This document shows, piece after piece, positions 2,881 through 62,302 of a stretch of DNA of 64,000 nucleotides; positions within the stretch are counted from its first letter, which is position 1, and every line of letters begins with the position of its first letter. The notes beneath the pieces are model-generated. The model did not search any database, was not told the DNA's origin, and saw nothing but the letters and a program-made list of their open reading frames with translations. This DNA is from an uncultured virus (IMG/VR IMGVR_UViG_3300021335_000006) (Duplodnaviria > Heunggongvirae > Uroviricota > Caudoviricetes). The DNA is taken from the IMG/VR virus record IMGVR_UViG_3300021335_000006, positions 62,001 through 126,000 of that record; one strand, given 5' to 3'. Both the position numbers and the translations under genes were made by a program.

Positions 2881-4558
2881 ATGGCAATTGAACTGTTTGG
2901 CTTTGAAATCAAAAGAAAGGAAGATGAAAACAAAAACATCACGTCTTTTGTTGAGCCTACCAATGATGACGGCGCTGTCAATATCGCCGTAACTGGATCA
3001 GTATCTAGCTCTTTCCTTGACTTGGACGGAGCCGCAAAGAGTGAAGCTGAACTTGTACAAAGATATCGCACTATGCTTCAGCAACCCGAAGTATCTCAAG
3101 CTGTAGATGATATTGTAAACGAAGCGATTTCAATCACTGATGACAAGAAAGTAGTTGATTGTATCACTGATGATGTGGACCTTCCCGATAATATTAAAAA
3201 GAAGATTCGAGAAGAATTTGACAATGTTATAAAACTGCTAGACTTTGGTAATACTGGATACGATACTTTTCAGAAGTGGTACGTCGATGGTAGAATCAAC
3301 TATCATGTAATGATCGACGAAAAATCACCCAGAAAAGGAATTCAAGAACTTCGCTATATTGATCCAAGAAAAATTCGTAAAGTTCGTGAGTATGATAAAG
3401 CGCCTGCTGGTAGTGATCAAAATAAGTTTATTGTTAAGAAAATCAAGAACGAGTATTTCATCTATAACGAGCGTGGATTCAATAATTTAAACACGTCTCA
3501 CGTTCAACAGTTTAGCGGCGGGGATATCAAGGGTCTAAAAATTGCAAAAGACTCTATCGTAAACGTCACGTCTGGCTTGCTAAACGAAAACGGAAATCTA
3601 GTACTATCTTATCTTCATAAAGCATACAAGCCTTTGAATCAGTTGAGAATGATGGAGGATGCTGTTGTTATCTATCGTATCTCACGAGCACCAGAGCGTC
3701 GAATCTTTTATATTGATGTGGGCAATCTCCCCAAATTGAAGGCTGAGCAACATCTACGTGATATGATGGTCAAGCATAAGAATCGTTTAGTCTACGATGC
3801 TGGAACTGGCGACATCAAAGATGATCGTAGACATATGGCCATGACAGATGATTTCTGGCTTCCAAGAAGAGAAGGTGGAAGGGGAACTGAAATCACAACA
3901 TTGCCCGGTGGTCAGAATTTGGGCGAAATCGAAGATATTCTGTATTTCCAAAAGAGACTACTTAAAGCATTGAATGTCCCCATCACTAGAATGGAGTCTG
4001 AGGCTGGATTCTCGCTTGGACGTGCATCAGAAATCTCTAGAGATGAGGTGAAATTTTCTAAGTTTATCGCACGACTACGTTCAAGATTTGCAATTCTTTT
4101 TGATAAATTACTTGAAAAGCAATTGATTTTGAAGGGAATTGTTTCTGTTGAAGATTGGCCAGCAATTCAAGCAGCCCTTCGATACGATTTTGTAACTGAT
4201 AATCATTTCTCAGAATTGAAACAGTCTGAAATTTTACAGAATCGCTTACAGCTTCTGAGAGACATCGATGAGTATCGTGGAACTTACTTCTCTAAAGATT
4301 GGGTACAGAAGCAAGTACTTTATATGTCTGAAGATGAAGTGGAAGAGATTAAGGATCAGATCGAACAAGAAAAGGCGGAAGAGCCTGAGGAAGAAGAAGA
4401 TCTGAACATGGATTACACGCCAGAAGCTCCTGTCATTCCTGATCATGGAACTTTGACGGTGGATATAGAAGAGGATAATGAACTGAAAGAAGAAGATAGA
4501 AAATTGATTGAAAATTTTTCATCAATGATCGATCAACTTATAACAGAAGAAAGTGATA

Positions 4559-4566
<8 letters not shown>
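2881..4566 (+). CDS. gp20: Portal vertex protein
   Basis: YRISRAPERRIFYIDVGNLPK and DFWLPRREGGRGTEITTLPGGQNLG motifs; long acidic C-terminal tail. Confidence 0.98.
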
Positions 4567-5785
<1,219 letters not shown>

Positions 5786-21055: not shown

Positions 21056-21084
21056 ATTATACTGAACATATAAGCATCTGTCAA
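21056..21084 (-). promoter_or_regulatory. Perfect sigma70 promoter, antisense orientation
   Basis: Reverse complement reads TTGACA-N17-TATAAT. Confidence 0.7.
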
Positions 21085-22785: not shown

Positions 22786-23012
22786 GTAAAAAGTATATTC
22801 ATGTAAATCAGCATAAAATTCGTGCAAACAAAAAGCATGGAACTGATGAGCCTGTGATCACAATCAAAGAAGGCCGAAGTAACACATATTGTCATGAAGT
22901 CAAAATTCATGGTGAATCGGTAGTGCGATACGGAGGAAGCGACAAGCCTATTCTTTCGTGTGGTGCTCGTGTTGTTATTGAGACTGAAGCTGACATTGAG
23001 ATTATTAGATGA
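22782..23012 (+). CDS. Conserved hypothetical phage protein
   Basis: IHVNQHKIR...LSCGARV; ATGA overlaps on both sides. Confidence 0.75.
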   Translation: MSKKYIHVNQHKIRANKKHGTDEPVITIKEGRSNTYCHEVKIHGESVVRYGGSDKPILSCGARVVIETEADIEIIR

Positions 23013-24718
23013 TAGTATTCAAAACCGTTAGATGGAAGAATTTTCTATCTACAGGGAATGTATGGACGGAAGTCCAACTCAACAAGAATAAATCTACTCT
23101 TGTTGTGGGTGAGAACGGAGCGGGTAAGTCTACAATGCTAGACGCCATCTGCTTTGCTCTTTATGGCAAACCCTTTAGAAAGATCAACAAGCCTCAGTTG
23201 ATGAACAGCATCAACAAAAAGGGACTTGAGACCGAGATTGAATTTACTAACAAGGGTAAAACATATCTTGTTCGTCGTGGTATCAAGCCAGCGATCTTTG
23301 AAATTTACTGTGATGGAAAGCTACTTAATCAAGACGCTGCAGCCAGAGATTATCAAGCGTATCTTGAAGATACGATTCTGAAGCTCAGTTACAAGTCTTT
23401 TGGACAGGTCGTTGTACTTGGATCTTCTACGTTTATTCCTTTCATGCAACTAAGTGCAAAAGATCGACGTGAGGTCATTGAGGATCTTCTTGATATTCAA
23501 ATCTTCACTACGATGAACACGTTACTCAAAGAACATGTTTCTACAAACAAGAGTGGTATTGATGAAAACAAGTATCAGATTTCACTTGTAGAGAACAAGA
23601 TTGACTCCGCAAAAGATCACAACGAGTCTATTCGCAAGTTGCATGAAAATAAAATTGACGATCTAAAGGAAAAGATCAAAGAACAAGTGTCGCAGGTTGA
23701 GGAACAGCGGGAACTAGCCGATACAATCGATGTTGAGATACAGTCACTTCTAGGATCAATATCTGACAAGGATAGCATTAAGAAAAAGCTAAAGAATGCT
23801 CAAAACATTGATCAAGATCTAAAAAACAAGTTACGGACGTTGGTGAAAGATATCTCTTTCTATGAGAATCATGATGAATGTCCTACTTGTCAGCAAGACA
23901 TTGATTCAGACTTTAAAGAAAGTCATGTCGGTGTGCAAAATAAGAAGCGTATTGAACTCGAAAATGGCTTAGATTCTTTACAAGAAAAGTTAGACGAACT
24001 CAACAAGCGTATCGATGAGATATCAGATATTGAAGATGATATTAATAAAAAGCATTTGTTAATGAGAGAACATGTTGCGAATCAAAAATTTGCAATGAAC
24101 TCGCTAAAAGGAATAAAAAATGATTTGGAGTCAGCAGAAAAAGAGGCTGAAGAAATTGACACTACGACTATCGAAGCCATGCAGGACGAACTCAATGAAA
24201 AGATTGCAGAACAACAGGAGCTAATGGACAAGAGAGAAGTCTTGGCAATCGTTAGTACAATGCTCAAGGATGGTGGCATTAAGACAAGGATTATCAAGCA
24301 GTATGTTCCAATCATGAACAAACTGATAAATAAGTACCTTGCTGCGATGGACTTTTTTGTTCAGTTTGAACTTGATGAAAGCTTTAACGAAACAATTAAG
24401 AGTCGATTCCGTGACGAGTTTTCTTACGCTTCTTTTTCTGAGGGTGAAAAACTTAGAATTGATCTGTCTTTGATGTTTACTTGGAGAGCGGTGTCTAAAT
24501 TGAGAAACTCAGTAAGTACGAATCTACTAGTTATGGATGAGATCATGGATTCATCGCTGGATAGCTCTGGAACAGATGAATTCCTAAAGATCATTAATGA
24601 GTTGACAGCAGACTCTAATGTGTTTATAATTAGCCACAAGAGTGAACAACTTTATGAAAAATTTGAAAACACCCTTCGCTTTGAGAAGGTCAAGAACTTT
24701 AGTAGGTTAGTAGCATGA
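23009..24718 (+). CDS. gp46: Recombination ATPase subunit (Rad50-like)
   Basis: GENGAGKS Walker A, CPTC zinc hook, FSEGEK signature, LVMDE Walker B. Confidence 0.97.
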   Translation: MIVFKTVRWKNFLSTGNVWTEVQLNKNKSTLVVGENGAGKSTMLDAICFALYGKPFRKINKPQLMNSINKKGLETEIEFTNKGKTYLVRRGIKPAIFEIYCDGKLLNQDAAARDYQAYLEDTILKLSYKSFGQVVVLGSSTFIPFMQLSAKDRREVIEDLLDIQIFTTMNTLLKEHVSTNKSGIDENKYQISLVENKIDSAKDHNESIRKLHENKIDDLKEKIKEQVSQVEEQRELADTIDVEIQSLLGSISDKDSIKKKLKNAQNIDQDLKNKLRTLVKDISFYENHDECPTCQQDIDSDFKESHVGVQNKKRIELENGLDSLQEKLDELNKRIDEISDIEDDINKKHLLMREHVANQKFAMNSLKGIKNDLESAEKEAEEIDTTTIEAMQDELNEKIAEQQELMDKREVLAIVSTMLKDGGIKTRIIKQYVPIMNKLINKYLAAMDFFVQFELDESFNETIKSRFRDEFSYASFSEGEKLRIDLSLMFTWRAVSKLRNSVSTNLLVMDEIMDSSLDSSGTDEFLKIINELTADSNVFIISHKSEQLYEKFENTLRFEKVKNFSRLVA

Positions 24719-25932
24719 ATGAATACAAGCCATATACAGTCGAGGATGTAATCAATGCGTCTAACGAAAATAGATTTAGTGTCATTAGTTGTTTTGCTGG
24801 CGGCGGTGGGAGTAGCACTGGATATCGTCTCGCTGGTGGAAAAGTTCTTTTAATCAACGAGTTTGTTGAAGAAGCGATTGCGTCATACAAGCAAAACTAT
24901 ACTGACACGAAAATCCTAGTTGATGATATTAAGAAGTATACTGGAGAAGATTTTCTTTCTCTTGCAAATATTAAAAAGGGTGAGCTTGATATCCTAGATG
25001 GATCGCCTCCTTGTTCTGCGTTTTCTGTTTCGGGTAAGCGTGAGAAAGGCTGGGCTGGTTACGTAAAAGACACACGCAAGTCTTACTTCGATGAGAATGG
25101 AGACATTGTTCACGAAGGTGAGATAGTCGTACAGGATGGAGTAAAGAAATACTCAGACAACAAGGTTCAAGAAGGTATTGAAGATCTGTTTTTAGAGTTT
25201 GTTCGGATTGCAAAAGATATTCAGCCAAAAGTGATCATCGCTGAGAACGTTAAGGGAATCACTATGGGCGAAGCAAAAGGTAAGCTTGTTGAGTTTATCA
25301 ATGCATTTGAAGAAATTGGATACGAGGTTACGTATCAAGTGATGAATGCGGCTGATTATGGCACAGCACAGAATCGTGAGCGCACCATCTTTGTTTGTAT
25401 TCGACAAGATGTATTTGATTCAATTGATATGAATGTGCTAACGATGAATCGAGTGTTTCCAGAGAGAACCTCTGATAAGATTCCTATGGAAAGCGCACTA
25501 TCTGGTATTGAAAATGATCCAGAAGAGATCCAAATGTTGCTCGACTACGTACAAAGAACCTATCAGAAAAAGTTTATCGAGAACTTACCATTTCGACCAC
25601 ATAAGACACTGAACCCAAGTCAGCCTGAGTTCGCTGATTGGAATCCAACAGGATCGTGTTTTAATATGAAACGGCCTTCTCCCTATCATCCTTGTCCAAC
25701 ACTAACTCAGTTAGGTCAACAGATGACTACTTCCGGAGTGTTTCACTATGATTATAATCGTAAGTTTACGATACCAGAACTCAAGAGATTGATGGGATTG
25801 CCCGAGGACTATCAACTGACGGGAACCTTCAATCAGAAAGCGGAGCGAATTGGTCGAATGGTTGCTCCTAAGATGATGGCTGAACTTGCAAAGTCCGTCT
25901 ATGAAAATGTGATAAAGCCTTACAATGCTTAG
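24715..25932 (+). CDS. C5-cytosine DNA methyltransferase family, predicted carboxymethyltransferase
   Basis: Motif I FAGGGG, IV GSPPC, VI ENV, VIII QNRER, IX RLMGLP; motif X reads IGRMV instead of GN(A/S)V. Confidence 0.92.
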   Translation: MNEYKPYTVEDVINASNENRFSVISCFAGGGGSSTGYRLAGGKVLLINEFVEEAIASYKQNYTDTKILVDDIKKYTGEDFLSLANIKKGELDILDGSPPCSAFSVSGKREKGWAGYVKDTRKSYFDENGDIVHEGEIVVQDGVKKYSDNKVQEGIEDLFLEFVRIAKDIQPKVIIAENVKGITMGEAKGKLVEFINAFEEIGYEVTYQVMNAADYGTAQNRERTIFVCIRQDVFDSIDMNVLTMNRVFPERTSDKIPMESALSGIENDPEEIQMLLDYVQRTYQKKFIENLPFRPHKTLNPSQPEFADWNPTGSCFNMKRPSPYHPCPTLTQLGQQMTTSGVFHYDYNRKFTIPELKRLMGLPEDYQLTGTFNQKAERIGRMVAPKMMAELAKSVYENVIKPYNA

Positions 25933-26467
25933 TCAACGAATACGAGAGCATAATGGCGAAAACTGCTATGATGATTCTTATCAGAGAGACGCATTAGTAA
26001 ATCTGATTCACACAGATAATGAATTTCGAGAGTACATAAAAGCGCAGTTTAATATCACGGATGAAGCAAACACTAAGATATGCAAAGACCCGCTTGGCGA
26101 TTACAAAGTAGATCTCGGCGTGAAGCAAAATGGTGAGTTGATCGGTCTGATAGAAGTCGATTACTATATCAAGTGGGATCCCGACTGGCCTGAGAACTAT
26201 CGATGGTGTCACGCACTCGCAAGAAAGATTAAGTACTGGAAAGAAGAGGGACTACCCTACATAGGTTGTACACTTAACAAGCAAGGTGATAAAGCGCTCG
26301 TGAGTACAGATGAAATGCAAAGAAAGTATATGTGGACAATGAAGCGAAAGAAAGTTTATCTCAATAATGAATGGATAGACGATAAGTTTATAGAGATACC
26401 CTTACGAGTAGCAAAGAAGTTTGGTAACTGGACAGATGATGAACTGAGGAGAGTGAACAATGCCTGA
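25925..26467 (+). CDS. Hypothetical protein, possible PD-(D/E)xK-like nuclease
   Basis: YKVDLGV...LIEVDYYIKW resembles the D...E-x-(D/K) core; overlaps both neighbours. Confidence 0.5.
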   Translation: MLSQRIREHNGENCYDDSYQRDALVNLIHTDNEFREYIKAQFNITDEANTKICKDPLGDYKVDLGVKQNGELIGLIEVDYYIKWDPDWPENYRWCHALARKIKYWKEEGLPYIGCTLNKQGDKALVSTDEMQRKYMWTMKRKKVYLNNEWIDDKFIEIPLRVAKKFGNWTDDELRRVNNA

Positions 26468-27167
26468 TTTTACCTTTGCACATAGAGACGAAGGATTCGA
26501 TGATCATATCGACAAATCTATTCGTGGCTATAGTGTTTTACATGATGATATAGTGAATCTTAGTAGATACTTTGTTGAAGACGATACAAACGTAATTGAT
26601 CTTGGTTGTTCAACAGGCAAGACTATTCATGCGATGATGAGACAAAACAACGAATTTGCTCCCAACGCAACATACGTGGGAATTGAGTATGCTGATGGAT
26701 TTATTCCTGCTCTCGACGAACGTGAAAAGCAAATGCGTGAAGAGTTTGGTGGTGTCGAAGGAAAGGTTGAGTTTCATATTGGCGACATTCGCAACTATGA
26801 TTTTGTGAATGCAAATCTAATCACTTCGATCTTCACCCTACAATTCATGCCCCCCACATCTCGTCGTGATGTACTCAAGAAGATTTACAATTCACTGAAC
26901 AAGAATGGTGCGTTTATCTTTGCTGAGAAAACGGTTGCTCAAGATCCAAGACTACAAGAAATGATGACGTTTACATATTACGATTACAAGCGGGAAAACT
27001 TCTCAGACAAAGACATTTTGGACAAAGAACAAACTCTTCGAAATATGTTGAAGCCAATGACATGGAAAGAAATACAATCTGCTCTCGCTACGGCGGGATT
27101 TGGGTTTGACAAAATTCAACCGTTCTGGCAGAATCATTTATTTGTCGGAGCTATTGCCATCAAGTGA
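26460..27167 (+). CDS. cmoA: CmoA-like carboxy-S-adenosylmethionine synthase
   Basis: DLGCSTG, GDIR, FTLQF, LKKIYNSL..NGAFIFAEK, YDYKRE and AGF..W-Q..F are colinear with E. coli CmoA as I recall it (DLGCSLG, GDIR, NFTLQF, LDKIYQGL..GGALVLSEK, HDFKRA). Confidence 0.85.
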   Translation: MPDFTFAHRDEGFDDHIDKSIRGYSVLHDDIVNLSRYFVEDDTNVIDLGCSTGKTIHAMMRQNNEFAPNATYVGIEYADGFIPALDEREKQMREEFGGVEGKVEFHIGDIRNYDFVNANLITSIFTLQFMPPTSRRDVLKKIYNSLNKNGAFIFAEKTVAQDPRLQEMMTFTYYDYKRENFSDKDILDKEQTLRNMLKPMTWKEIQSALATAGFGFDKIQPFWQNHLFVGAIAIK

Positions 27168-27215
27168 TTTTTGTGATAAACTCTCTTTTAAATCTTGAAA
27201 AAAGGATTATATCTT

Positions 27216-27866
27216 ATGCAATTTAGTGACAATACAATTTCAGTACTTAAAAATTTCTCTCAGATCAATCCCAGTATTATGTTTCGATCTGGAAGTGTCT
27301 TGAGAACTATCTCGCCCCAGAAGACAGTCATGGCTGCAGCCGAAATCGACGAATCATTCGAGAAGTCAGTCGGCGTATACAATCTCGGTCGTTTTCTGGC
27401 AACCCTTTCCTTGTTTGATGAGCCGGAGATTGCACTTGAGGAAACTCAGTTTGTCATCGGTGATGCGAAGAGTACTGTTAAGTATACGTACACTTCAGAG
27501 AACATGATTGTTTCTCCACCCGATAAGGATATTAATGTTCCTGATATTGTTGCTGACATCAACATCACTTGGGAAGAAATCAAGAAGGTTCGAGACGCTG
27601 CAGCTGTCCTTGGACTTCCTGAGATTTCTTTCTCTAGTTCTGGTCGAGGTGTCTTACTTTCAGCCGTCGATAGCAAAAACTCTACAGCGGATACTTTCAG
27701 CATTATCTCCGCACCCGACGAAACGTTTGAGCCATTTGATATGATTATCAAAACAGACTATCTCAAACTGCTGGAGCAAGACTACCAGGTAGCCCTTTCG
27801 ACCAAGGGAATGGCACACTTCCGTTCTAATGGAGTCAACTACTGGATCGCAATCGAATCTCGGTAG
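27216..27866 (+). CDS. gp45: DNA polymerase sliding clamp
   Basis: MQFSDNTISVLKNFSQINPSI, YNLGRFL and NYWIAIE; ATG at 27216. Confidence 0.94.
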   Translation: MQFSDNTISVLKNFSQINPSIMFRSGSVLRTISPQKTVMAAAEIDESFEKSVGVYNLGRFLATLSLFDEPEIALEETQFVIGDAKSTVKYTYTSENMIVSPPDKDINVPDIVADINITWEEIKKVRDAAAVLGLPEISFSSSGRGVLLSAVDSKNSTADTFSIISAPDETFEPFDMIIKTDYLKLLEQDYQVALSTKGMAHFRSNGVNYWIAIESR

Positions 27867-29607: not shown

Positions 29608-29844
29608 ATGGATATACTATGGTATGACGCTGAAGCTTTAAACGGCAAGGGAATGCCGGGAGAGTATTCTTCCTCTGAAGAGCAAAATCTCGGACCGAGC
29701 AATGCACGAGAGTGTCCCTGCATTCCTTGTGAGCGAAGCGCTGAATGTAAAGCAAACCTTTTATCGTGCGATGCGTTTCGAAAGTGGTGTAACACTGGAA
29801 ACTATTCGGACGATAGTTTAATGATAAAGTTGAAGAGCATATGA
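29608..29844 (+). CDS. Hypothetical Cys-rich protein
   Basis: CPCIPC...C...C...C; AGGAG SD. Confidence 0.6.
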   Translation: MDILWYDAEALNGKGMPGEYSSSEEQNLGPSNARECPCIPCERSAECKANLLSCDAFRKWCNTGNYSDDSLMIKLKSI

Positions 29845-30491
29845 TAGTAAAGATAACGCAATGTCCTGATAGATCCAGATGGTATTCTTCTAAGGTTGGT
29901 GAGAACTGGGAAGTATTTGACTTGCAGAATGGAGAGTATTCTTGTCGATCATCTGACGGCTATCTCAATTTCATTTTAGCATCCGACTGTGAACTAGTAG
30001 ACCCCGCTCCAGCCTCTTACATAGATGACTTGATGCAAGAAAGTCATTTGCTGGATATGACAGAAGACATTGAGATTGATGCTGAAGTAGGCGGAACAAG
30101 AGAAGCACTCGGTGTCCCGTACATGAGATTCCTTCCGCTAGAAGCACTTGCTGCAGCAGCCGCATCTTTTGAATACGGCGCTAAGAAGTATGAGTCTAGA
30201 AATTGGGAGAAGGGACTTCCATGGCAACAGATGATCGATAGCCTCAAACGACATATCGATGACTTCGAGCGAGGCATAGATCACGATGATGCTGAAGACG
30301 GATCTGGCTTACATCAGGTCTGTATGATCATGGCTAGTGCTATGATGTTGTCTGCATCTGTCATTCGTGGAATCGGAAAAGACGATAGAACGCCTCTTAT
30401 CAGTCCTACAATGACTGCTAAAGAATGTGCTAGGTGGATTGAAGATCAACTTGCGCTTGCTGATCAGCACTCAAATAAAAGTAATAAATAG
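29841..30491 (+). CDS. dATP/dGTP diphosphohydrolase domain protein (DUF5664-like) with extra N-terminal domain
   Basis: FEYGAKKYESRNWEKGLPW...SLKRH...SGLH motif. Confidence 0.8.
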   Translation: MIVKITQCPDRSRWYSSKVGENWEVFDLQNGEYSCRSSDGYLNFILASDCELVDPAPASYIDDLMQESHLLDMTEDIEIDAEVGGTREALGVPYMRFLPLEALAAAAASFEYGAKKYESRNWEKGLPWQQMIDSLKRHIDDFERGIDHDDAEDGSGLHQVCMIMASAMMLSASVIRGIGKDDRTPLISPTMTAKECARWIEDQLALADQHSNKSNK

Positions 30492-33535: not shown

Positions 33536-33748
33536 ATGGGCATATGGGCTAAGATAAAAAGCTGGATCTTTGGAATACACTGTCTTTTGTGTAGAACAAA
33601 ACTCGATCCCACGAGTGAGTATGTCATAGTCCAATATAGGTGTCTAGATGGCTATGATAATCTTTATCTTTGTACTGAGTGTGCAAAAGATTTTGATGAA
33701 GCCGCATTTGATAGCAATACAGATCCGTCCGCTTTCATTGATATATGA
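33536..33748 (+). CDS. Hypothetical zinc-finger protein
   Basis: CLLC...CTEC. Confidence 0.6.
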   Translation: MGIWAKIKSWIFGIHCLLCRTKLDPTSEYVIVQYRCLDGYDNLYLCTECAKDFDEAAFDSNTDPSAFIDI

Positions 33749-34572
33749 AGTATGTAACTCTGCTTACAGCTATTGCGATAGCGGCAGTAGCGGGATACTT
33801 CTCTATCATTGGATTGTCTACAATCTTTGCTGGTGCTTTCTGGGCTGTTGTTATTATGGCGACAGTGCTAGAGATAGGTAAACTTGTTACTGCCGCATAT
33901 CTTCATCTAGAGTGGAAAGATATAAGTACATGGATTAGGACTTATCTAATATCAGCAGTATTTGTCCTGATGATTATCACTTCAATGGGTATCTTTGGAT
34001 ATCTATCGAAGGCTCACTTAGAGCAGACAATAAATCAAGGTGGTAATAATGAATTACTTATCAGCGGCCTCGAGAGAAAGATTGAAAGACAGCAATCGAT
34101 CATCGATGACTCCGAAACGGTCTTGGCGCAACTCGACTCTGCGGTTGAAATACTGCAAGACTATGACCGAATTAGAGGACCTGATGGAGCAATTGCGGTT
34201 CGGAAGGCGCAAGCAGAGGAAAGGACAGAACTCAACAGAACAATCGGATTGGCGTATGATCAGATTGCAGGATTCCAAGAACAACTTCTGCCCCTGCAGA
34301 AACAAACTCTTGAACTTGAAGCAGAAATCGGCCCAATCAAATACATAGCAGAACTAATTTACGGAGAGAACTATGACATCGATAATGCGGTTCGTTTCGT
34401 TATTCTTTTACTTGTGTTTGTTTTCGACCCCTTGGCGATTATACTATTGATAGTATCGACAGCAATGTTCAAACGTGATATCATTGCTAAACCCGAAGTA
34501 AAAAAAAAGTTGAAGACGGACAACTCAATGAATCCGTTAGTGAGCGAACAACAAATTATGGTGATGGAATGA
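33745..34572 (+). CDS. Membrane protein with coiled coil
   Basis: Three N-terminal hydrophobic helices, ITSMGIFGYLS, GPIKYIAE and FVFDPLA. Confidence 0.8.
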   Translation: MKYVTLLTAIAIAAVAGYFSIIGLSTIFAGAFWAVVIMATVLEIGKLVTAAYLHLEWKDISTWIRTYLISAVFVLMIITSMGIFGYLSKAHLEQTINQGGNNELLISGLERKIERQQSIIDDSETVLAQLDSAVEILQDYDRIRGPDGAIAVRKAQAEERTELNRTIGLAYDQIAGFQEQLLPLQKQTLELEAEIGPIKYIAELIYGENYDIDNAVRFVILLLVFVFDPLAIILLIVSTAMFKRDIIAKPEVKKKLKTDNSMNPLVSEQQIMVME

Positions 34573-37257: not shown

Positions 37258-37287
37258 TTGACATGTCCCCCATGTCTACTATATAAT
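37258..37287 (+). promoter_or_regulatory. Sigma70-type promoter for gp43
   Basis: TTGACA-N18-TATAAT. Confidence 0.65.
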
Positions 37288-46547: not shown

Positions 46548-49500
46548 GTGGAAAAAGAAGAAAAAAAAGAAAATCCGTCTAAGACTAAAAAGAAAGACGA
46601 AACCTTAGTCAAGAACACCATCGAACTCAATCCAACTCTTAATGAGGCAAAAGGTAAAACTGTCGTCCTTGGTTGGGGTCGCATGAATCCAATCACGTCT
46701 GGTCACGAGAAGTTAGCAAACAAAATCAAAGAAGTTGCTAAGAAGCGCTCGGCTACACCCCTTATCTATCTTGGCCAATCACAAGATCCTAAAAAGAATC
46801 CGCTTAGTTACGATGATAAAATAAAGCTAGCGCAAATGGCATTTGGTCGTAATCTTGTAGTCAAGTCAAAAGCAAAGACCATTTTTCAAGTCATGAAAGA
46901 ACTCGAGGCTAAGTTTGACAACGTAATTCTCGTTGTTGGTGCTGATAGAATCTCGGAATTTGATACTCTGCTTAACAAGTACAACGGTAAAGACTTTACC
47001 TTTGACGACATCGAAGTAGTTTCTGCCGGAGAGCGCACAGATCCCGACTCAGATGAAGCTAAGAATATGACTGCTGATACTATGTCTGCTTCTGTTATGC
47101 GTAAGCTAGCGTCTCAGGGCGATCTTGAGGGCTTTAAGAAGGGCCTCCCAAAGAAACTCCAGCGAAACGCTAAGAACATCTACGACATGGTTCGTGGTGG
47201 AATGAAACTCGCTAAACTCGAAGAAGAAATGGAATCACTCGATGAAGTGATGACTATTCAACAACGAAGAAAGCGTGCCCTTACTATGCGTCGATATAAG
47301 ACTAAGATCGCCATGGCTCGTAAGAGAATGCGTAGACGATTTGCAGACGCAAGCAAGCTTAAAACTCGCTCTCGCAAGAAAGCAATTCAACTGATTCGTA
47401 AAAAGGTTGCGGGTAAGCAAGGCGCTAACTATAAAGATCTCAGTCCCGCACAAAAAATGCTCATTGATAAGAAAGTCGCAAAGCGTAAAGCAATCATCGA
47501 CAGAATTGCTAAGAGACTTTTACCTCAGGTCAAGAAAGCTGATCGTCAAAAGTTTATGACGAAAAGCGAAGAAATGAATCCTGTACTGACTCCCGATAAC
47601 GAGACACCAAGACAGAAGCGTTACCATCAGATGTTTAATAAGGAAGGATCAATCAAGCTAGATGGTCGATTCAAAGCATTTAAGAAAAAGCAAAGTCAGT
47701 TTGAAGAAGTCAATGACGTAGAGTTGCTACAGCTTATCGAAGAGATTACTAACACCATCGATGAAAAGTCGCTCAGCGACAATGATCCGTGGGGCATCAA
47801 AAAGCTTAAGTCTGTAACAGTCAATCGAAAGCAATACGCTGTAGCCGCTCAGCTTTTAAAGAAACTACTTGCACGTAAGAAAAAAGAAAAACCCGGTCGT
47901 CATTCTCCAGTTTATTACGCTCAAGTTATTGCAAAGCAATTCGATAATGTAGACGCTAAGACTCTTGCAAAAATGGTTCAAGAAGAAGGTGGCGCAGGTG
48001 ATCGTGGTACTGAAAAAGTAACTAAGCGATACAAGAGAGACACGCCCGGTGAGACTGTCAGCGAGCAAAAGGTTGCACAAGATCCAGACGTAAAAGATCA
48101 GCCTGGGACTCAGCCCAAAAAGTATTACAAGGGACTTTCTGATTCTGAAAAAGAAGCAAGAGCAAAGCAATTCCGTAAAGGCGTAAAAGCGGACGATGAT
48201 AGTCCTAGCTCTTACAAGTCTGCACCGGGCGACGATGATGCGAAGACAAAAGAGTCTAAGCACACTAAAAAGTATCGTCAAATGTATGGGGAGTCTTTGG
48301 AAGAAGGTCCTAACATGGAACGAGCAAAGGATCAGATTAAGAGAATTCGCAATCGAGTCAGAAAAGAGGTTGATCAGATTCAAGATCGTGCGAGAGCTGC
48401 TGATGTTCAGCGTAAGAATCGTAGTACTCGTCCTCGGTTGGCAACTGAAACATATGAGTTGACTGAAGAGTCAAAAGAAGCATTGATGAAAAAGGCTGAT
48501 AAGTCCGGAATTCCATATAGTATTCTCAAAAAAGTTTATGATCGGGGAATGGCAGCGTGGAAGACAGGGCATCGCCCAGGTGCTACTCAACAGCAGTGGG
48601 CGTATGCTCGTGTCAATTCGTTTATCACTAAGGGTAAAGGAACTTGGGGCGGAGCAGATAAAGATCTAGCATCTAAGGTCAAGAAGGAATCGGTCAACGA
48701 AGAAGTCAACATGAAAAATGTTGATAAACTCAAGACTGCCGCCAGAGACTTTAGCAAAAACAAGAGCAGAAACTTTCAGTCAATCGAAGATGCACTATTA
48801 ACGATTGTGCAGTCGATGCGGGTTTTAGGGAAAAGCACTTCTGGGCGGACTGATTATAAGCACGAAGGAATCATTGATAAAGAAATCTCAAGAATCAATA
48901 ATATCTCTAGTAAAGCATACGGTACAGAAGAAGGTAAAGAGATAAAAAGCCTTCTTACTAAACACGGGCTTGTAACTAAGACAGGTAGCACATACAGTCC
49001 AATGATGGATTTGATTTACGAGTCGGTAAATGAAGCAGTTTCTCCCGCACAGCAAGCGGCTATTGCTATCTCTAAGAAAGAGCGAGGCGAAAAGCCTAAG
49101 AAGACTTTTAAAGAAGCTCGCAAGAGTCGAAAAATGTCTGCTCAAGATCGCTTGTGGAAAAGCTATAACGCTTATACCAAAAGAACAACTGGTAAAAGCG
49201 CAGACGAACGTGTAAAAGAACTTGAGCAAATGATCCAAAAAATGAAAAAGGAGCGAGAGGCTCTAGACGAACAAGATCCTTGTTGGGATGGATATAAGCA
49301 AGTTGGAATGAAGAAAGGGAAGAAAGGTAAGCCTGTTCCAAACTGCGTGAAAGAAACTGTTCGAAGCAAGACAATCAAAGTCGGTGAAGACGCTATCGGC
49401 GCTGATGAAACTCACTATGCTCTCGTAAAGGAAAGAGAAGTAGTTGCAATCGGCAATAAAGAGGATATGTTGTCACTTCACAGAGAAGAAGGTGGACGTG

Positions 49501-49892
49501 TTTGGGTATCAACAAAGCAAGTGGGAGATCTTGTTGAAGAAGTTACTCAACAGCAGATCAACGATCTCGAAAAGTTTGCAGATCGCTTGCTCAACAAGTT
49601 TGACGTAGACATCGAATTTACGAGACACTTCGCTGATCGACTCAATGATCCTCGCAACAAGCCTGCTATTACAGTTGCTGAGTTACAACGACTCTTTAAG
49701 AAGATGGCAGACAACAAGGGTAAGCGAATCAAGAAGCACGGTAACGCTGAAGCTGTCCTCAAAGATATGCAATCGGATCTGAATCTTCCCGTTGTTGTAA
49801 ACTGGAAGAACGGTGAGTTCGAAGTTGTAAACAAAACAATCATGCGTAAGAAAGCATTTAAGACGCCTAATCCAGTTATTAAGTACGAGTGA
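46548..49892 (+). CDS. Large modular protein with N-terminal cytidylyltransferase-like domain
   Basis: GRMNPITSGHEKL (HxGH-like), VVGADR, SAGER and MSASVMR, followed by many short modules; GTG start after GAGGA. Confidence 0.8.
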   Translation: MEKEEKKENPSKTKKKDETLVKNTIELNPTLNEAKGKTVVLGWGRMNPITSGHEKLANKIKEVAKKRSATPLIYLGQSQDPKKNPLSYDDKIKLAQMAFGRNLVVKSKAKTIFQVMKELEAKFDNVILVVGADRISEFDTLLNKYNGKDFTFDDIEVVSAGERTDPDSDEAKNMTADTMSASVMRKLASQGDLEGFKKGLPKKLQRNAKNIYDMVRGGMKLAKLEEEMESLDEVMTIQQRRKRALTMRRYKTKIAMARKRMRRRFADASKLKTRSRKKAIQLIRKKVAGKQGANYKDLSPAQKMLIDKKVAKRKAIIDRIAKRLLPQVKKADRQKFMTKSEEMNPVLTPDNETPRQKRYHQMFNKEGSIKLDGRFKAFKKKQSQFEEVNDVELLQLIEEITNTIDEKSLSDNDPWGIKKLKSVTVNRKQYAVAAQLLKKLLARKKKEKPGRHSPVYYAQVIAKQFDNVDAKTLAKMVQEEGGAGDRGTEKVTKRYKRDTPGETVSEQKVAQDPDVKDQPGTQPKKYYKGLSDSEKEARAKQFRKGVKADDDSPSSYKSAPGDDDAKTKESKHTKKYRQMYGESLEEGPNMERAKDQIKRIRNRVRKEVDQIQDRARAADVQRKNRSTRPRLATETYELTEESKEALMKKADKSGIPYSILKKVYDRGMAAWKTGHRPGATQQQWAYARVNSFITKGKGTWGGADKDLASKVKKESVNEEVNMKNVDKLKTAARDFSKNKSRNFQSIEDALLTIVQSMRVLGKSTSGRTDYKHEGIIDKEISRINNISSKAYGTEEGKEIKSLLTKHGLVTKTGSTYSPMMDLIYESVNEAVSPAQQAAIAISKKERGEKPKKTFKEARKSRKMSAQDRLWKSYNAYTKRTTGKSADERVKELEQMIQKMKKEREALDEQDPCWDGYKQVGMKKGKKGKPVPNCVKETVRSKTIKVGEDAIGADETHYALVKEREVVAIGNKEDMLSLHREEGGRVWVSTKQVGDLVEEVTQQQINDLEKFADRLLNKFDVDIEFTRHFADRLNDPRNKPAITVAELQRLFKKMADNKGKRIKKHGNAEAVLKDMQSDLNLPVVVNWKNGEFEVVNKTIMRKKAFKTPNPVIKYE

Positions 49893-56042: not shown

Positions 56043-56071
56043 TTGACAAGAACACATCTAGATGGTATAAT
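56043..56071 (+). promoter_or_regulatory. Sigma70-type promoter for primase
   Basis: TTGACA-N17-TATAAT with extended TG. Confidence 0.8.
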
Positions 56072-56109: not shown

Positions 56110-57147
56110 ATGAATCATGTCGATTTAAAGTACGCCAACATTTTATCATCTCGTCTTGAACTTTTCAAGATCAAACAGAATAGTCCCTATCGAGCGAACT
56201 TTCGCTGTCCTATCTGTGGGGATTCTCAAAAGTCAAAGCACAAGGCTCGTGGCTGGATCTTAGAAAAAGACAATTCAGCTATCTTCTATTGTCACAACTG
56301 TGGCGCATCTCATAATTTGCGTAACTTCCTAAGAGCGGTTGATCATAATCTTTTCAATGATTATGTTATCGATACTGTAGCAGAAAAGTATGAGTCTCCA
56401 AAGCGACTCTACAAGCCGAACGCAAAGCCTCTAGATAAACTAAAACACAAGCGTCCAGCATTTACGAAGAAAGACTCTCCGCTTAGGGGAATCAAAAAAG
56501 TCTCTTCTCTTCCGCATAATCATATGTGTCGTAAGTATATTGAAGAGAGAAAGATTCCTACGAATCAACAATGGCGAATGTACTATGCTCCTAATTTTAA
56601 TTCGTGGGTCAACACTCTGATTCCCAACAAACTTCCAGAGTTAGAAAACGATAGTCCTAGACTCGTGATGCCCTTCATCAATAGAAGAGGAGAAGTTTTT
56701 GGATTTAACGCAAGAGCATTTAATCCATATGAACTACGCTATATAACTATCATGCTAGACGAAGATTCGTCTAAGATTTTTGGCCTTGATGTAGTCGATA
56801 CCACCAAAAAATATTACGTAGCGGAGGGTCCGCTAGACAGCATGTTTATAAGTAATTGTATGGCTATGGCAGGAGCAGATGGAAATGCTTCGGGACTACC
56901 AAATCCAGAAAACGCTGTCTTTATCTTTGACAATGAACCAAGGAATAAAGAGATCGTTTCTAGAATGGAGAAGTGTATTGCATCCGGATATAAATTGTGC
57001 ATCTGGCCAGATAGAGTCGTTGACAAAGACATTAATGATATGATATTATCAGGACTAACAATTCGTGAAGTTCAAGATATTATAAATTCTAATACATATC
57101 ATGGTCTTGAAGGCAAGCTGAAGATAAGTTTCTGGAGAAAGTGTTAA
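56110..57147 (+). CDS. gp61: DNA primase
   Basis: NFRCPICGDS...CHNCG zinc finger, EGPLDSMF, FDNEPRN and KDINDM TOPRIM motifs. Confidence 0.96.
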   Translation: MNHVDLKYANILSSRLELFKIKQNSPYRANFRCPICGDSQKSKHKARGWILEKDNSAIFYCHNCGASHNLRNFLRAVDHNLFNDYVIDTVAEKYESPKRLYKPNAKPLDKLKHKRPAFTKKDSPLRGIKKVSSLPHNHMCRKYIEERKIPTNQQWRMYYAPNFNSWVNTLIPNKLPELENDSPRLVMPFINRRGEVFGFNARAFNPYELRYITIMLDEDSSKIFGLDVVDTTKKYYVAEGPLDSMFISNCMAMAGADGNASGLPNPENAVFIFDNEPRNKEIVSRMEKCIASGYKLCIWPDRVVDKDINDMILSGLTIREVQDIINSNTYHGLEGKLKISFWRKC

Positions 57148-57680: not shown

Positions 57681-59669
57681 ATGAAAATTAAGATCGATAA
57701 GTCCAAAGATGATCTATTAGCAGATTATGCTATTAACATGCTTAAGGATTTTTATCTTAATAGTTACGAATCATCCCCACAAGAAGGATACGCTAGAGCC
57801 GCTAAAGCATGGTCAGTATACAGAGAAACAATTGATGAAGATCTAGCCCAAAGGTTATACGACTATGTTTCAAAAAAATGGTTTATGTTTGCATCTCCAG
57901 TTCTTAGCAATGCGCCTAATGGACACGGTAAAGGAAAGGGAATGCCTATCTCATGCTTCCTCACATACGTTCCGGACACTCTTGAAGGTCTTATTGATCA
58001 TACTTCTGAACTGCGCTGGCTTAGTGTTTATGGCGGTGGCGTCGGTGGTCACTGGTCTGATGTACGGACAGTCTCTGACATTGCTCCAGGCCCTATCCCA
58101 TTTCTCCACACTGTAGACGCAGATATGATTGCTTACCGTCAAGGTAAGACTAGAAAAGGCTCTTATGCCGCTTATATGGATGTCTCACATCCGGATATCG
58201 TAGAGTTTCTAAACATTCGAATTCCTACGGGTGATGTACAACGCAAGGCATTGAATTTACATAATGCAATCAACATCACTGATGAGTTTATGAATTGCGT
58301 AAAGCATGGCGATTTCTTTGACTTAAGAGATCCTAAAGATGGAACAGTCAAAGACTCAGTTGATGCACGTAAACTATGGGAAAGAATTTTGGAGGTAAGA
58401 TTCAGAACTGGTGAACCTTACTTAAACTTTATCGATACAGCAAACAAGCATTTACCAGAGCCTCTGAAAGAGAAAGGATTAAAGATTCATGGCTCTAATC
58501 TTTGCAATGAGATTCATCTCCCAACATCAGATGAACGTACTGCTGTTTGTTGCTTATCATCTTTAAACTTGGAGTACTATGATGAGTGGAAAGACACAAG
58601 TATTGTACGGGATCTTGTTCGCATGTTGGATAACGTGCTTGAGTATTTCATTGATAATGCACCTGATACTATATCTCGTGCTAAGTATAGTGCCATGCGT
58701 GAACGTAGCATTGGATTGGGGGCAATGGGCTTTCACTCGTTGCTACAAAAGCATGGAGTCGCTTGGGAGTCAGATAAGGCTCGTGAGATAAATGATGTAG
58801 TCTTCTCGCATATTCAGCGAGAAGCAAATGCGGAAACTGAGTGGCTTGCTGTTGAAAGAGGTGAGTATCTTGATGGCGAAGGAAGCGGAAAGCGAAACGC
58901 ACATTTAATCGCAATCGCTCCTAATGCGTCATCTGGAGTGATTTTATCAACGAGTCCTAGCATCGAGCCAATGAAGGCAAATGCTTACACTCATAGAACC
59001 CGAGCAGGGAGTTTTCTAGTTAAAAATCGCTACTTGGAACAATTGCTTGCTGAACGGGAAATGAACAACGAGTCCACCTGGTCATCAATCATCACTAATA
59101 AAGGATCTGTTCAGCATCTTCCATTCTTAACTGAAGGAGAGAAGGCTGTCTTTAAGACGGCACAAGAACTTGATCAGACTTGGGTTGTACAGCACGCCGC
59201 AGACAGACAAAAGTATATCTGTCAAGGTCAGTCTGTCAATTTATTCTTCCCGTCCGGAGTGGCCAGAGGCTATGTGAACAAAGTTCATTTAAAAGCTTGG
59301 CAAGAAGGACTGAAGGGCTTATACTATTTGAGAACGGAAGCTAAATCTCGTGCTGAGACTGTCGCTGACAAAGTGGAGCGAGTTGCTTTACAGGACGATA
59401 ATAGAACTATTATCTACGGTAAGAGTAATTGTCCATTCTGTGAACTTGCAAAGCAAGAGTTGACACTGCAGGGAATCCCATTCGATTACATTGATTTGAA
59501 AGAGATTGGAAAAACTGCAGCAGAGGTCACTGGAAGGAAGGTGAATAGTGTACCTCAAATTTACATTAATGGAAAATACGTTGGCGGTTATGATCAGTTA
59601 ATTGCTTACTTAAATTCTAACACAGTAGCAGCTCAACAAGGCGAAGAATGCCGAGCTTGTGAAGGCTAA
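57681..59669 (+). CDS. nrdA: Class Ia ribonucleotide reductase alpha subunit with fused glutaredoxin
   Basis: PISCF, SNLCNEI, IAPNASS, CQGQSVN, LYYLR; then YGKSNCPFC..VPQIYING..GGY; ends ECRACEG. Confidence 0.95.
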   Translation: MKIKIDKSKDDLLADYAINMLKDFYLNSYESSPQEGYARAAKAWSVYRETIDEDLAQRLYDYVSKKWFMFASPVLSNAPNGHGKGKGMPISCFLTYVPDTLEGLIDHTSELRWLSVYGGGVGGHWSDVRTVSDIAPGPIPFLHTVDADMIAYRQGKTRKGSYAAYMDVSHPDIVEFLNIRIPTGDVQRKALNLHNAINITDEFMNCVKHGDFFDLRDPKDGTVKDSVDARKLWERILEVRFRTGEPYLNFIDTANKHLPEPLKEKGLKIHGSNLCNEIHLPTSDERTAVCCLSSLNLEYYDEWKDTSIVRDLVRMLDNVLEYFIDNAPDTISRAKYSAMRERSIGLGAMGFHSLLQKHGVAWESDKAREINDVVFSHIQREANAETEWLAVERGEYLDGEGSGKRNAHLIAIAPNASSGVILSTSPSIEPMKANAYTHRTRAGSFLVKNRYLEQLLAEREMNNESTWSSIITNKGSVQHLPFLTEGEKAVFKTAQELDQTWVVQHAADRQKYICQGQSVNLFFPSGVARGYVNKVHLKAWQEGLKGLYYLRTEAKSRAETVADKVERVALQDDNRTIIYGKSNCPFCELAKQELTLQGIPFDYIDLKEIGKTAAEVTGRKVNSVPQIYINGKYVGGYDQLIAYLNSNTVAAQQGEECRACEG

Positions 59670-61419: not shown

Positions 61420-61845
61420 ATGTGGAATTATGAAGGTCGTGAATTTACAAGCGACATGATAGGAGAGTTTGTTGGATTTGTCTACTGCATTACAGACTCT
61501 AGAAATGGGAAAAAATATATTGGTAAGAAGACATTTAAGTCGAGGAGAACTTTACCGCCGCTAAAGGGAAAGACTAGAAGACGTAAAGTCGTAAAAGAAT
61601 CTGATTGGATGATGTACTATGGATCATCTGAAGAAGTCAAGTCTCTAGTTGAAGAACATGGCGGTGAAGTCTTTAATCGAGAAATCCTTCATTTATGTAA
61701 TTCCAAGGGGGAGATGTCTTACTTAGAGTTAAAAGAACAGATTGAGCGAGAAGTGTTATTGTCAGATGAGTATTTCAACGGCATCATAAACTGCAAAATT
61801 CACCGATCTCACGTTCAGTCTTTAGTTGGGAGAGGAAAGAGATGA
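61420..61845 (+). CDS. GIY-YIG family nuclease
   Basis: GFVY...KKYIGKK...YYGSS...FNREIL. Confidence 0.8.
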   Translation: MWNYEGREFTSDMIGEFVGFVYCITDSRNGKKYIGKKTFKSRRTLPPLKGKTRRRKVVKESDWMMYYGSSEEVKSLVEEHGGEVFNREILHLCNSKGEMSYLELKEQIEREVLLSDEYFNGIINCKIHRSHVQSLVGRGKR

Positions 61846-61964: not shown

Positions 61965-62302
61965 AATACATTGATTACGAAATTGAAGATGATCGAATGA
62001 TCAGCCTAACCGAACAAATCAAACAATGGCACTACGATAGAAATTTAATCCTAGGTTCTACTGACAAGGATCAAGTATGTAAATTGATCCAAGAAGTAGG
62101 CGAGCTTAGCGACAATGTATGCAAAGGTCGTGATGTCTCAGACGACATTGGAGATTGCATCGTTGTGCTGATAAATATTGCAGAGCGAAATGGTCTATCG
62201 TTATCAGACTGTTTAGAGCAAGCATACAATGATATCAAACATCGTACAGGCCGTATGATCAATGGAGTCTTCGTAAAAGAAGGCGATATTATGGAGGAGT
62301 AA
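61961..62302 (+). CDS. MazG-like nucleotide pyrophosphohydrolase
   Basis: KLIQEVGEL...DDIGDC...AYNDIKHRTGRMINGVFVKE. Confidence 0.88.
   Translation: MKYIDYEIEDDRMISLTEQIKQWHYDRNLILGSTDKDQVCKLIQEVGELSDNVCKGRDVSDDIGDCIVVLINIAERNGLSLSDCLEQAYNDIKHRTGRMINGVFVKEGDIMEE

Follow-up and report, generated by a model that had tools for sequence, protein, structure and literature searches.

A predicted CmoX-CmoA cytosine carboxymethylation cassette with an interposed nuclease-fold gene in an uncultured T4-like phage

The stretch of DNA considered here, called the window, is 64,000 nucleotides (nt) long and covers positions 62,001 to 126,000 of IMGVR_UViG_3300021335_000006, an IMG/VR viral contig of 130,810 bp with a CheckV completeness of 74%. 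The window is the replication and structural region of a T4-like phage. Three overlapping open reading frames (ORFs) occupy the junction between the genes for gp46 and gp45: cmoX (ORF1), a gene of 180 codons called ORF180 (ORF2, or “N”), and cmoA (ORF3). By homology, this cassette very probably belongs to the CmoA-CmoX DNA carboxymethylation system described for the Synechococcus phage S-B43 (Yang et al., Nat Commun 2025;17:281, 7 December 2025; PMC12783734), with the nuclease-fold gene in the middle as an optional addition. The features of the locus are:

23009..24718, + strand: gp46-like recombination nuclease ATPase subunit (SMC_N, AAA_23, AAA_29), the upstream flank, which is the same in related loci
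24602..24630, + strand: candidate sigma-70-type promoter, TTGACA-17-TATAAT, consensus score 12/12
24715..25932, + strand: cmoX (ORF1), 405 amino acids (aa), homologue of a C5-carboxymethyltransferase (PF00145, PDB 8YF3, SpCmoX homology)
25925..26467, + strand: ORF180 (ORF2, N), 180 aa, nuclease family without a name and with a predicted PD-(D/E)xK fold (AlphaFold2 model, fold matches)
26460..27167, + strand: cmoA (ORF3), 235 aa, homologue of carboxy-S-adenosylmethionine synthase (SpCmoA homology, TIGR00740, PDB, PHROG)
27216..27866, + strand: gp45 sliding clamp, the downstream flank (PF09116, gp45-slide_C, E 1e-9)

The genes are closely packed. The gp46 gene and cmoX overlap by 4 nt and share ATGA, and the junction sequences give an overlap of 8 nt for ORF2 with each of its neighbours, ORF1 and ORF3. 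The first-pass annotation of this DNA, made from the sequence alone, had placed three overlapping ORFs between gp46 and gp45; the ORF list and the junction sequences return the same coordinates, all on the + strand. The junction sequence makes the ATG at 27216 the probable start of gp45, in place of the listed TTG at 27195. The TTGACA-17-TATAAT element sits 85 nt 5' of cmoX, within the 3' end of gp46, and is likely the early promoter of the cassette. Perfect matches to this consensus number four in the window against 0.08 expected, and none of 100 shuffles reaches four. The other three lie at 21056-21084 (-), 37258-37287 (+) and 56043-56071 (+); on the + strand, the copy at 37258 is just upstream of gp43 and the other precedes an ORF at 56110. 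Along the window, the gene order is sheath, portal, gp23, UvsY, UvsW, gp47, gp46, cassette, gp45, gp44, gp62, RegA, gp43, UvsX, gp41 and ribonucleotide reductase (RNR) genes.

ORF1 is, by sequence, a homologue of CmoX, the DNA cytosine C5-carboxymethyltransferase. It matches PF00145 (E 1.8e-52), and its best solved relative is SpCmoX of S-B43 (PDB 8YF3; E 1.5e-110, query 6-400 against chain 4-369), with which it shares 47% identity over 396 columns in BLASTP. It is about 33 residues longer than SpCmoX, mainly through an insertion after motif IV. Its translation contains F27-A-G-G-G-G32, S97-P-P-C100, E177-N-V179, Q219-N-R-E-R223 and E377-R-I-G-R381-M-V383, in agreement with the motifs FxGxGG, PPC, ENV, QxRxR and ERIGRMV read earlier. 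HMMER aligns ERIGRMV with MIGNAV of HaeIII and ERVGRMV of SpCmoX; therefore Arg381 occupies the motif-X Asn column. It aligns with Arg350 of SpCmoX (N304 of HhaI), so the proposed Asn-to-Arg change at motif X stands up to the alignment that had been suggested as its check. S97-P98-P99-C100 aligns with S95-C98 of SpCmoX, making Cys100 the predicted nucleophile, and SPPC is the criterion used in the published search (PMC12783734). The residues that contact carboxy-S-adenosylmethionine (Cx-SAM) are also kept: F27, E49, F50 and D71 correspond to F25, E47, F48 and D69 of SpCmoX, and Cys100 to Cys98. ORF1 is the sole C5-methyltransferase (C5-MTase) of the contig.

ORF3 is, by the same kind of comparison, a homologue of CmoA, the Cx-SAM synthase. 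It shares 54% identity with SpCmoA, a proven Cx-SAM synthase, and matches TIGR00740 nearly end to end (positions 14-238 of 239, E 1.4e-38, 132.9 bits). In the PDB it matches Haemophilus influenzae YecO (1IM8, E 2.1e-27) and Escherichia coli CmoA (4GEK, E 2.6e-25), as expected from the earlier description of ORF3 as colinear with CmoA, and among PHROGs it matches phrog_4752 (E 3.4e-63). Its TIGR00740 score is below the equivalog cut-off of 193.3 bits. Because the proven SpCmoA scores lower still (115.6 bits; the homologue in phage S-CRM01 scores 119.1 bits), a score below the cut-off is normal for the phage clade and the cut-off is not diagnostic there. A search with PF08003 found no cmoB in the entire 130,810-bp contig, extending an absence noted before for the window, and no ParB_N domain was found in the contig.

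The enzymes of S-B43 have been characterized directly, in the one relevant paper to which the literature searches led. SpCmoA makes Cx-SAM, and SpCmoX uses it to write 5-carboxymethylcytosine (5cxmC) at GC sites, which blocks HhaI. Wild-type SpCmoX accepts only Cx-SAM and not S-adenosylmethionine (SAM), the R350N variant is inactive, and in the 1.9 Å structure (PDB 8YF3) Arg350 touches the carboxymethyl group. A third enzyme, SpCmoY, ligates glycine onto 5cxmC to give the glycine amide 5gcxmC; native S-B43 DNA holds the glycine amide only, with free 5cxmC not detected. The published survey lists 5,615 candidate CmoX, 4,257 CmoA and 2,251 ligase genes (PMC12783734).

The phage analysed here resembles S-B43 in several respects. 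Both carry a C5-MTase homologue with SPPC and a motif-X Arg together with a CmoA homologue, both have them in the replication region of a T4-like cyanophage (Kyanoviridae-type), and both lack cmoB. They differ in gene order, which is X-N-A here (X for cmoX, A for cmoA, Y for the ligase gene) and A-Y-X in S-B43, and in that CmoY was not found in this phage. An engineered enzyme offers a parallel: M.MpeI N374K, a C5-MTase with Lys at the motif-X Asn, reportedly uses Cx-SAM and writes 5cxmC at CpG targets. It is like natural CmoX in that a basic residue at the motif-X Asn goes with Cx-SAM use and 5cxmC, and unlike it in being engineered, in having Lys where the natural enzymes carry Arg, and in targeting CpG where SpCmoX targets GpC.

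Taken together, these comparisons suggest the following course of events. The cassette would be transcribed early from the promoter at 24602-24630. CmoA would convert SAM and host prephenate to Cx-SAM. Cys100 of CmoX would attack C6 of cytosine and the carboxymethyl group would be passed to C5, with Arg381 holding the carboxylate of the cofactor. Phage DNA would then carry 5cxmC, with GpC the probable site as it is in S-B43, and the base would block host restriction enzymes. Without CmoY, the modification would probably end at 5cxmC and not at the glycine amide. The 180-aa nuclease would be optional for the pathway, a mobile gene of homing type that settled in the cmoX|cmoA junction. The activities themselves were demonstrated by experiment for the S-B43 homologues; for this phage, homology, conserved residues, gene context and distribution are the grounds on which we infer the activity and target site of the enzymes, their end product and the nuclease's role.

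The first-pass annotation had proposed that this phage makes its own Cx-SAM and carboxymethylates its cytosines, and the proven S-B43 homologues, their 47% and 54% identity and the retained key residues all support that proposal. Its suspicion that a natural cyanophage enzyme of this kind had been reported was correct. The novelty it allowed for does not hold: the mechanism has already been published with biochemistry and a crystal structure (PMC12783734). The middle ORF had been left unexplained and the CmoY step had not been considered.

The distribution of the cassette was surveyed in viral contigs. The scan gave 95 CmoX relatives; of the best 80, two are this phage itself, leaving 78 others. 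Contig ends truncate some of these loci, and duplicates are frequent (87 CmoX sequences reduce to 60 distinct ones). cmoA is present in 73 of the 78 loci, and the usual position of the cassette is between gp46 and gp45. None of the 78 loci has a homologue of ORF180; cassettes without N have a short spacer between cmoX and cmoA.

The ligase gene is the main difference from the published system. PF00733, which in positive controls detects SpCmoY and two of its relatives, has no match in the 130,810-bp contig, and a hidden Markov model built from 12 CmoY homologues and a tblastn search reach at best E 0.34 and E 0.19. Because no CmoY was found, 5cxmC without the glycine amide is the probable end product.

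Two alternatives bear on the chemistry of the cassette. One is that ORF1 is an ordinary SAM-dependent methyltransferase producing 5-methylcytosine and that ORF3 has a different task, such as tRNA cmo5U formation or SAM depletion. The database names agree with it: Pfam and NCBIfam label ORF1 merely as a C5 DNA methylase, and PHROGs call the ORF3 family “tRNA methyltransferase.” It is nevertheless very improbable, given that wild-type SpCmoX refuses SAM and its Arg350 binds the carboxylate in the published account of the enzyme (PMC12783734), that the Arg is kept here, that the contig has no cmoB, and that cmoA is linked to cmoX in 73 of the 78 related loci. The other alternative accepts carboxymethylation and places the end point elsewhere: the final base would be the amide, as in S-B43, made by an unrelated ligase or by one whose gene lies in the ~26% of the genome that the contig does not cover. 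Three observations weigh against 5cxmC at GpC as the final state. The contig is 74% complete, so that a ligase could lie in the remainder; 67 of the 78 related loci have a CmoY homologue beside CmoX; and conservation of CmoX is lowest in its target-recognition region (identity windows of 30-50%), so that the GpC specificity of ORF1 is an assumption. The exclusive presence of the amide in native S-B43 DNA points the same way as the first two (PMC12783734). Against an amide stands the fact that relatives keep CmoY in the CmoX locus, usually adjacent, whereas in this phage other genes fill both flanks. L018 and L019, the loci with the nearest CmoX, carry X-A and no Y; a longer sibling contig of 143,934 bp, identical across the cassette, has no PF00733 match; and neither have two complete genomes with CmoX and CmoA, those of S-CRM01 (178,563 bp) and of a 200,733-bp X-N-A contig with terminal repeats. 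An amide as final product is thus doubtful, and free 5cxmC is the preferred reading.

Synechococcus phage S-CRM01 (HQ615693) is a further parallel. Its genes g149 and g148, annotated just as methyltransferases, are cmoA and cmoX without CmoY, as in this phage, and both cassettes lie in the replication module. The S-CRM01 genes are in the order A-X between gp62 and regA, with no nuclease gene, and their products are 48% (CmoX) and 53% (CmoA) identical to those of this phage. Another arrangement is seen at L121:273-3347, where N is followed by a 399-aa protein (no Pfam match; phrog_5931, unknown function), CmoX with GRMV, and CmoA. The 399-aa protein fills the place where a ligase might be expected.

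ORF180 has no match in Pfam, NCBIfam or PHROG. When 17 close family members were compared with Pfam at E <= 10, six scattered single-member matches appeared (best E 0.035), and 27 distant members gave one sub-threshold DUF29 match only. No PDB sequence matched in a profile search at E <= 10, and among the 482 contig ORFs of at least 50 aa the profile matches ORF180 alone, with no paralogue. Homologues of ORF180 fall into 16 clusters at 47-98% identity, and HMMER finds 79 family clusters among 1.84 billion protein representatives at E <= 0.001. tblastn with three members had no match in 50,697 GenBank phage records, and no bacterial relatives appeared when 185,579 genomes of prokaryote species were scanned with a pattern. 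The searches place the family solely in uncultured T4-like phage contigs.

The fold was assessed by structure prediction. An Atlas comparison had given PDDEXK_14 (score 0.94, 167 shared features), which served as a lead only. The AlphaFold2 model from a 17-sequence alignment has a mean predicted local distance difference score (pLDDT) of 84.9 and a predicted template-modelling score (pTM) of 0.82. Against 48,161 chains, VIA-align matches it best to the D212 nuclease (2w8m_B; Z 9.1, root-mean-square deviation 4.0 Å, 129 residues), followed by Hjc resolvases (Z 6.2-6.8), NhoI (6.2), I-Ssp6803I (5.3), DpnI (5.3), HinP1I (5.1), MspI (5.0), PvuII (4.9) and Vsr (3.7). In all, 19 chains reach Z >= 5, and nucleases make up the majority of the top 20 rows. 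Foldseek likewise has D212 and Hjc among its top matches, together with SPARDA complex chains. All of 43 family members compared have D63, W84 and K101, and the closer 15 share D63, E77, V78, D79, R100 and K101 without variation; the correspondence of conserved residues with canonical catalytic positions was drawn by predicted secondary structure alone. The ratio of nonsynonymous to synonymous substitution rates (dN/dS) is 0.12-0.23 for ORF180, 0.05-0.09 for cmoX and 0.07-0.10 for cmoA. Because of the fold matches, the invariant residues and this ratio, ORF180 is regarded as a working gene whose product is predicted to have a PD-(D/E)xK nuclease fold. Its GC content (0.403; 0.425 at third codon positions) shows no departure from that of neighbouring genes. 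The closest folds, D212 of fusellovirus SSV1 (PDB 2W8M) and archaeal Hjc, have a sequence identity of only 8-13% to ORF180, and a fold shared with them does not give its function. The idea that ORF180 is a remote or truncated CmoY is ruled out by the nuclease fold and the lack of a PF00733 signal.

The genomic contexts of the family were compared at 29 loci in viral contigs. At 18 of them, N adjoins a DNA MTase or is one gene away from it, in five arrangements:

CmoX-N-CmoA: 8 loci
gp43-N-C5-MTase, the enzyme being homologous to CmoX (35-38%) and having Leu in place of the Arg/Asn (RIGLMV): 7 loci
gp43-N-phrog_12517 MTase-like protein: 1 locus
MTase-ORF103-N, then a complete small N6/N4 MTase: 1 locus
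N-ORF399-CmoX-CmoA: 1 locus

The remaining 11 have no such neighbour, and 7 of these are gp44-N-gp62. The C5-MTases of the second arrangement (L110-L113 and L115-L117; e.g. L112:3070-4281) keep PPC and read RIGLMVAP, a third state of the motif-X residue. Downstream of the enzyme, L111 has a weak match to a Tet_JBP-like oxygenase (31.5 bits, the cut-off being 34.9), and L110 and L112 have a ResIII helicase-like protein. At L119, a split of an MTase gene by N was considered and ruled out: the 216-aa gene aligns with whole small MTases over 94-97% of its length, and the 430-aa gene encodes a different protein.

Within CmoX cassettes, N is the exception. X-N-A or Y-X-N-A occurs in 8 loci, two of which are this phage, so that 8 of 86 CmoX-bearing loci carry N. 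The N proteins of X-N-A loci form one clade (support 99). The cmoX genes of the same loci fall into two separate clades, with that of this phage nested among N-less cassettes (support 82), and the cmoA genes fall in three places of their tree. The N tree has 20 rows and the cmoA tree 35 of 55 distinct rows. Across the family, N is found in at least five junctions of the replication module, including gp44-N-gp62, gp43-N-MTase, N-gp33-gp59 and 2-oxoglutarate oxygenase-N-DUF6267, and every junction has its own N sub-clade. This patchy distribution, and the disagreement between the N tree and those of its flanks, are the reason for reading the nuclease as optional and mobile.

One pair of loci bears on mobility directly. 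L111 and L112, both of the gp43-N-MTase sub-clade, are 98-100% identical in DNA across N. From ~500 nt upstream to 1100 nt downstream, a tract of ~1.6 kb, 12 of 16 windows of 100 nt are at least 97% identical and the others range from 0.79 to 0.93. Outside the tract, gp43 further upstream is 72-91% identical, and beyond ~1700 nt downstream identity is 25-43%, that of unrelated DNA. In this comparison the pattern is that of a recently transferred segment centred on N. A different boundary is visible among Y-X-N-A loci: L005 is 86-88% identical to L008 and L007 in cmoX and just 64-66% in N and cmoA. This drop therefore points to a recombination breakpoint at the cmoX/N boundary, with N travelling together with cmoA.

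The Seg and Mob families are free-standing homing endonucleases of T4-like phages, and N resembles them in several ways. It is a small nuclease gene between core genes, patchy among relatives, with a near-identical tract in one sub-clade, and its fold is related to that of the PD-(D/E)xK homing endonuclease I-Ssp6803I (Z 5.3). It is unlike Seg and Mob in having no sequence relationship to them, no named family and often a DNA MTase as neighbour. The same genome also has a free-standing gene of the homing type, for a SegE-like GIY-YIG endonuclease at 61420-61845 of the window (PF19835, E 2.8e-39). The gp44|gp62 slot, which holds an N relative in other phages, here has two ORFs of 70 and 275 aa (33536-34572) without Pfam matches; the larger has no PHROG, and the smaller matches only phrog_17557, weakly. 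The slot seems to be a site of variable insertions. At L120:1-511, a gp62-adjacent copy of N is split over two short ORFs (85 and 95 aa) at the contig edge and is possibly broken.

Three roles for ORF180 have to be weighed. That it is a homing-type mobile nuclease and not a core gene of the pathway has, on the sequence comparisons, roughly an even chance of being right. Several findings tell against it. The trees were built by a quick method and have SH-aLRT as their only support values, and the rows of this phage are on long branches. Sliding comparisons of CmoX and CmoA identity with the N-bearing and N-less groups show no co-conversion tract around this phage's own N. N is under purifying selection and has neither intergenic space nor its own promoter, and its position beside DNA methyltransferases at 18 of 29 family loci is not obviously predicted by a purely selfish element. 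The last points lead to the second role, that of a restriction-like partner, in which ORF180 would cut DNA without the C5 modification (that of the host or of a competing phage) while CmoX shields the phage's own DNA, as in a restriction-modification (RM) module. In its favour are the five arrangements with a nearby MTase, a fold that also matches the type II enzymes NhoI, DpnI, HinP1I, MspI and PvuII, the translational coupling of N to both neighbours and its dN/dS. The absence of N from all 78 other CmoX cassettes, the 11 family loci without an MTase neighbour, the lack of bacterial relatives in the prokaryote genomes scanned and the preference of the fold for D212 and Hjc over restriction enzymes make this rather unlikely; the L111/L112 tract and the disagreement between N and flank trees fit mobility better.

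It is also conceivable that ORF180 and CmoX act as an RM-like drive. The nuclease would cut DNA without C5-modified GpC, in the host or at the homologous locus of a co-infecting phage that has no cassette, and 5cxmC would shield the phage's own genome. On this reading, unelaborated 5cxmC would have a natural carrier in this phage. This is a tentative idea that we consider fairly doubtful; if it were true, the cassette would feed host-DNA breakdown and copy itself into rival phages. The third role is another form of DNA processing, either Vsr-like repair of deaminated modified cytosine or junction resolution. The fold has some likeness to Hjc and a weak one to Vsr (Z 3.7), and the gene overlaps a C5-MTase gene, much as the dcm and vsr genes overlap. 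Some family members, however, stand beside N6/N4-type MTases or no MTase, a patchy distribution would be odd for a repair enzyme or resolvase, and there is no Pfam Vsr match, so this role is quite improbable. A mobile nuclease of homing type remains the preferred reading of ORF180.

The significance of the locus is accordingly specific. Carboxy-SAM-dependent cytosine carboxymethylation in cyanophages is already known (PMC12783734), and the locus adds no new principle; it is unusual only in the missing glycine ligase and in the nuclease gene between cmoX and cmoA. Both the ligase-less cassette and a mobile nuclease family that favours MTase genes are secondary points of modest weight. Ligase-less cassettes, as in this phage, S-CRM01 and the complete 200-kb relative, predict phages with free 5cxmC in their DNA. 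If 5cxmC is the end product here, the phage would be a natural carrier of a base so far seen only in recombinant systems. A homing role for ORF180 would mean a new PD-(D/E)xK homing family, and a restriction-like role would tie the modification of phage DNA to attack on DNA that lacks it.

The composition of the contig has a marked gap. CGCG is absent, with 0 occurrences against ~211 expected in 130.8 kb (0 against 109 +/- 9 in the window). Other palindromes are rare or missing, namely CGATCG (0 of 18 expected), GACGTC (0 of 17), GGCGCC (0 of 16), GTCGAC (2 of 25) and CTCGAG (2 of 18); counts of GCGC and GGCC match expectation. The gap is probably restriction-site avoidance, and it deserves mention since CGCG includes a GpC, the expected target of CmoX. 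The gap is independent of the nuclease, because many related loci share it with or without ORF180. CGCG as the target of the nuclease was ruled out, as CGCG is also missing from many N-less relatives and occurs at normal counts in the N-bearing L009 and L010. A literature search on cyanophage CGCG found no paper on the gap among the records listed.

Some further genes can be recorded. A few genes downstream of gp45, at 29841-30491 of the window, lies a 216-aa protein with a dATP/dGTP diphosphohydrolase N-terminal domain (PF18909, E 3.8e-20). In three gp44-N-gp62 loci (L011:3419-4879, L102:1348-2391 and L118:1101-2141), a RimK-like ATP-grasp ligase comes right after regA, where the window has none. 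Elsewhere in the window are a 1114-aa protein with a cytidylyltransferase-like domain and DUF5824 (46548-49892), a 410-aa collagen-repeat protein (4553-5785) and an RNR large subunit that ends in a glutaredoxin domain (57681-59669).

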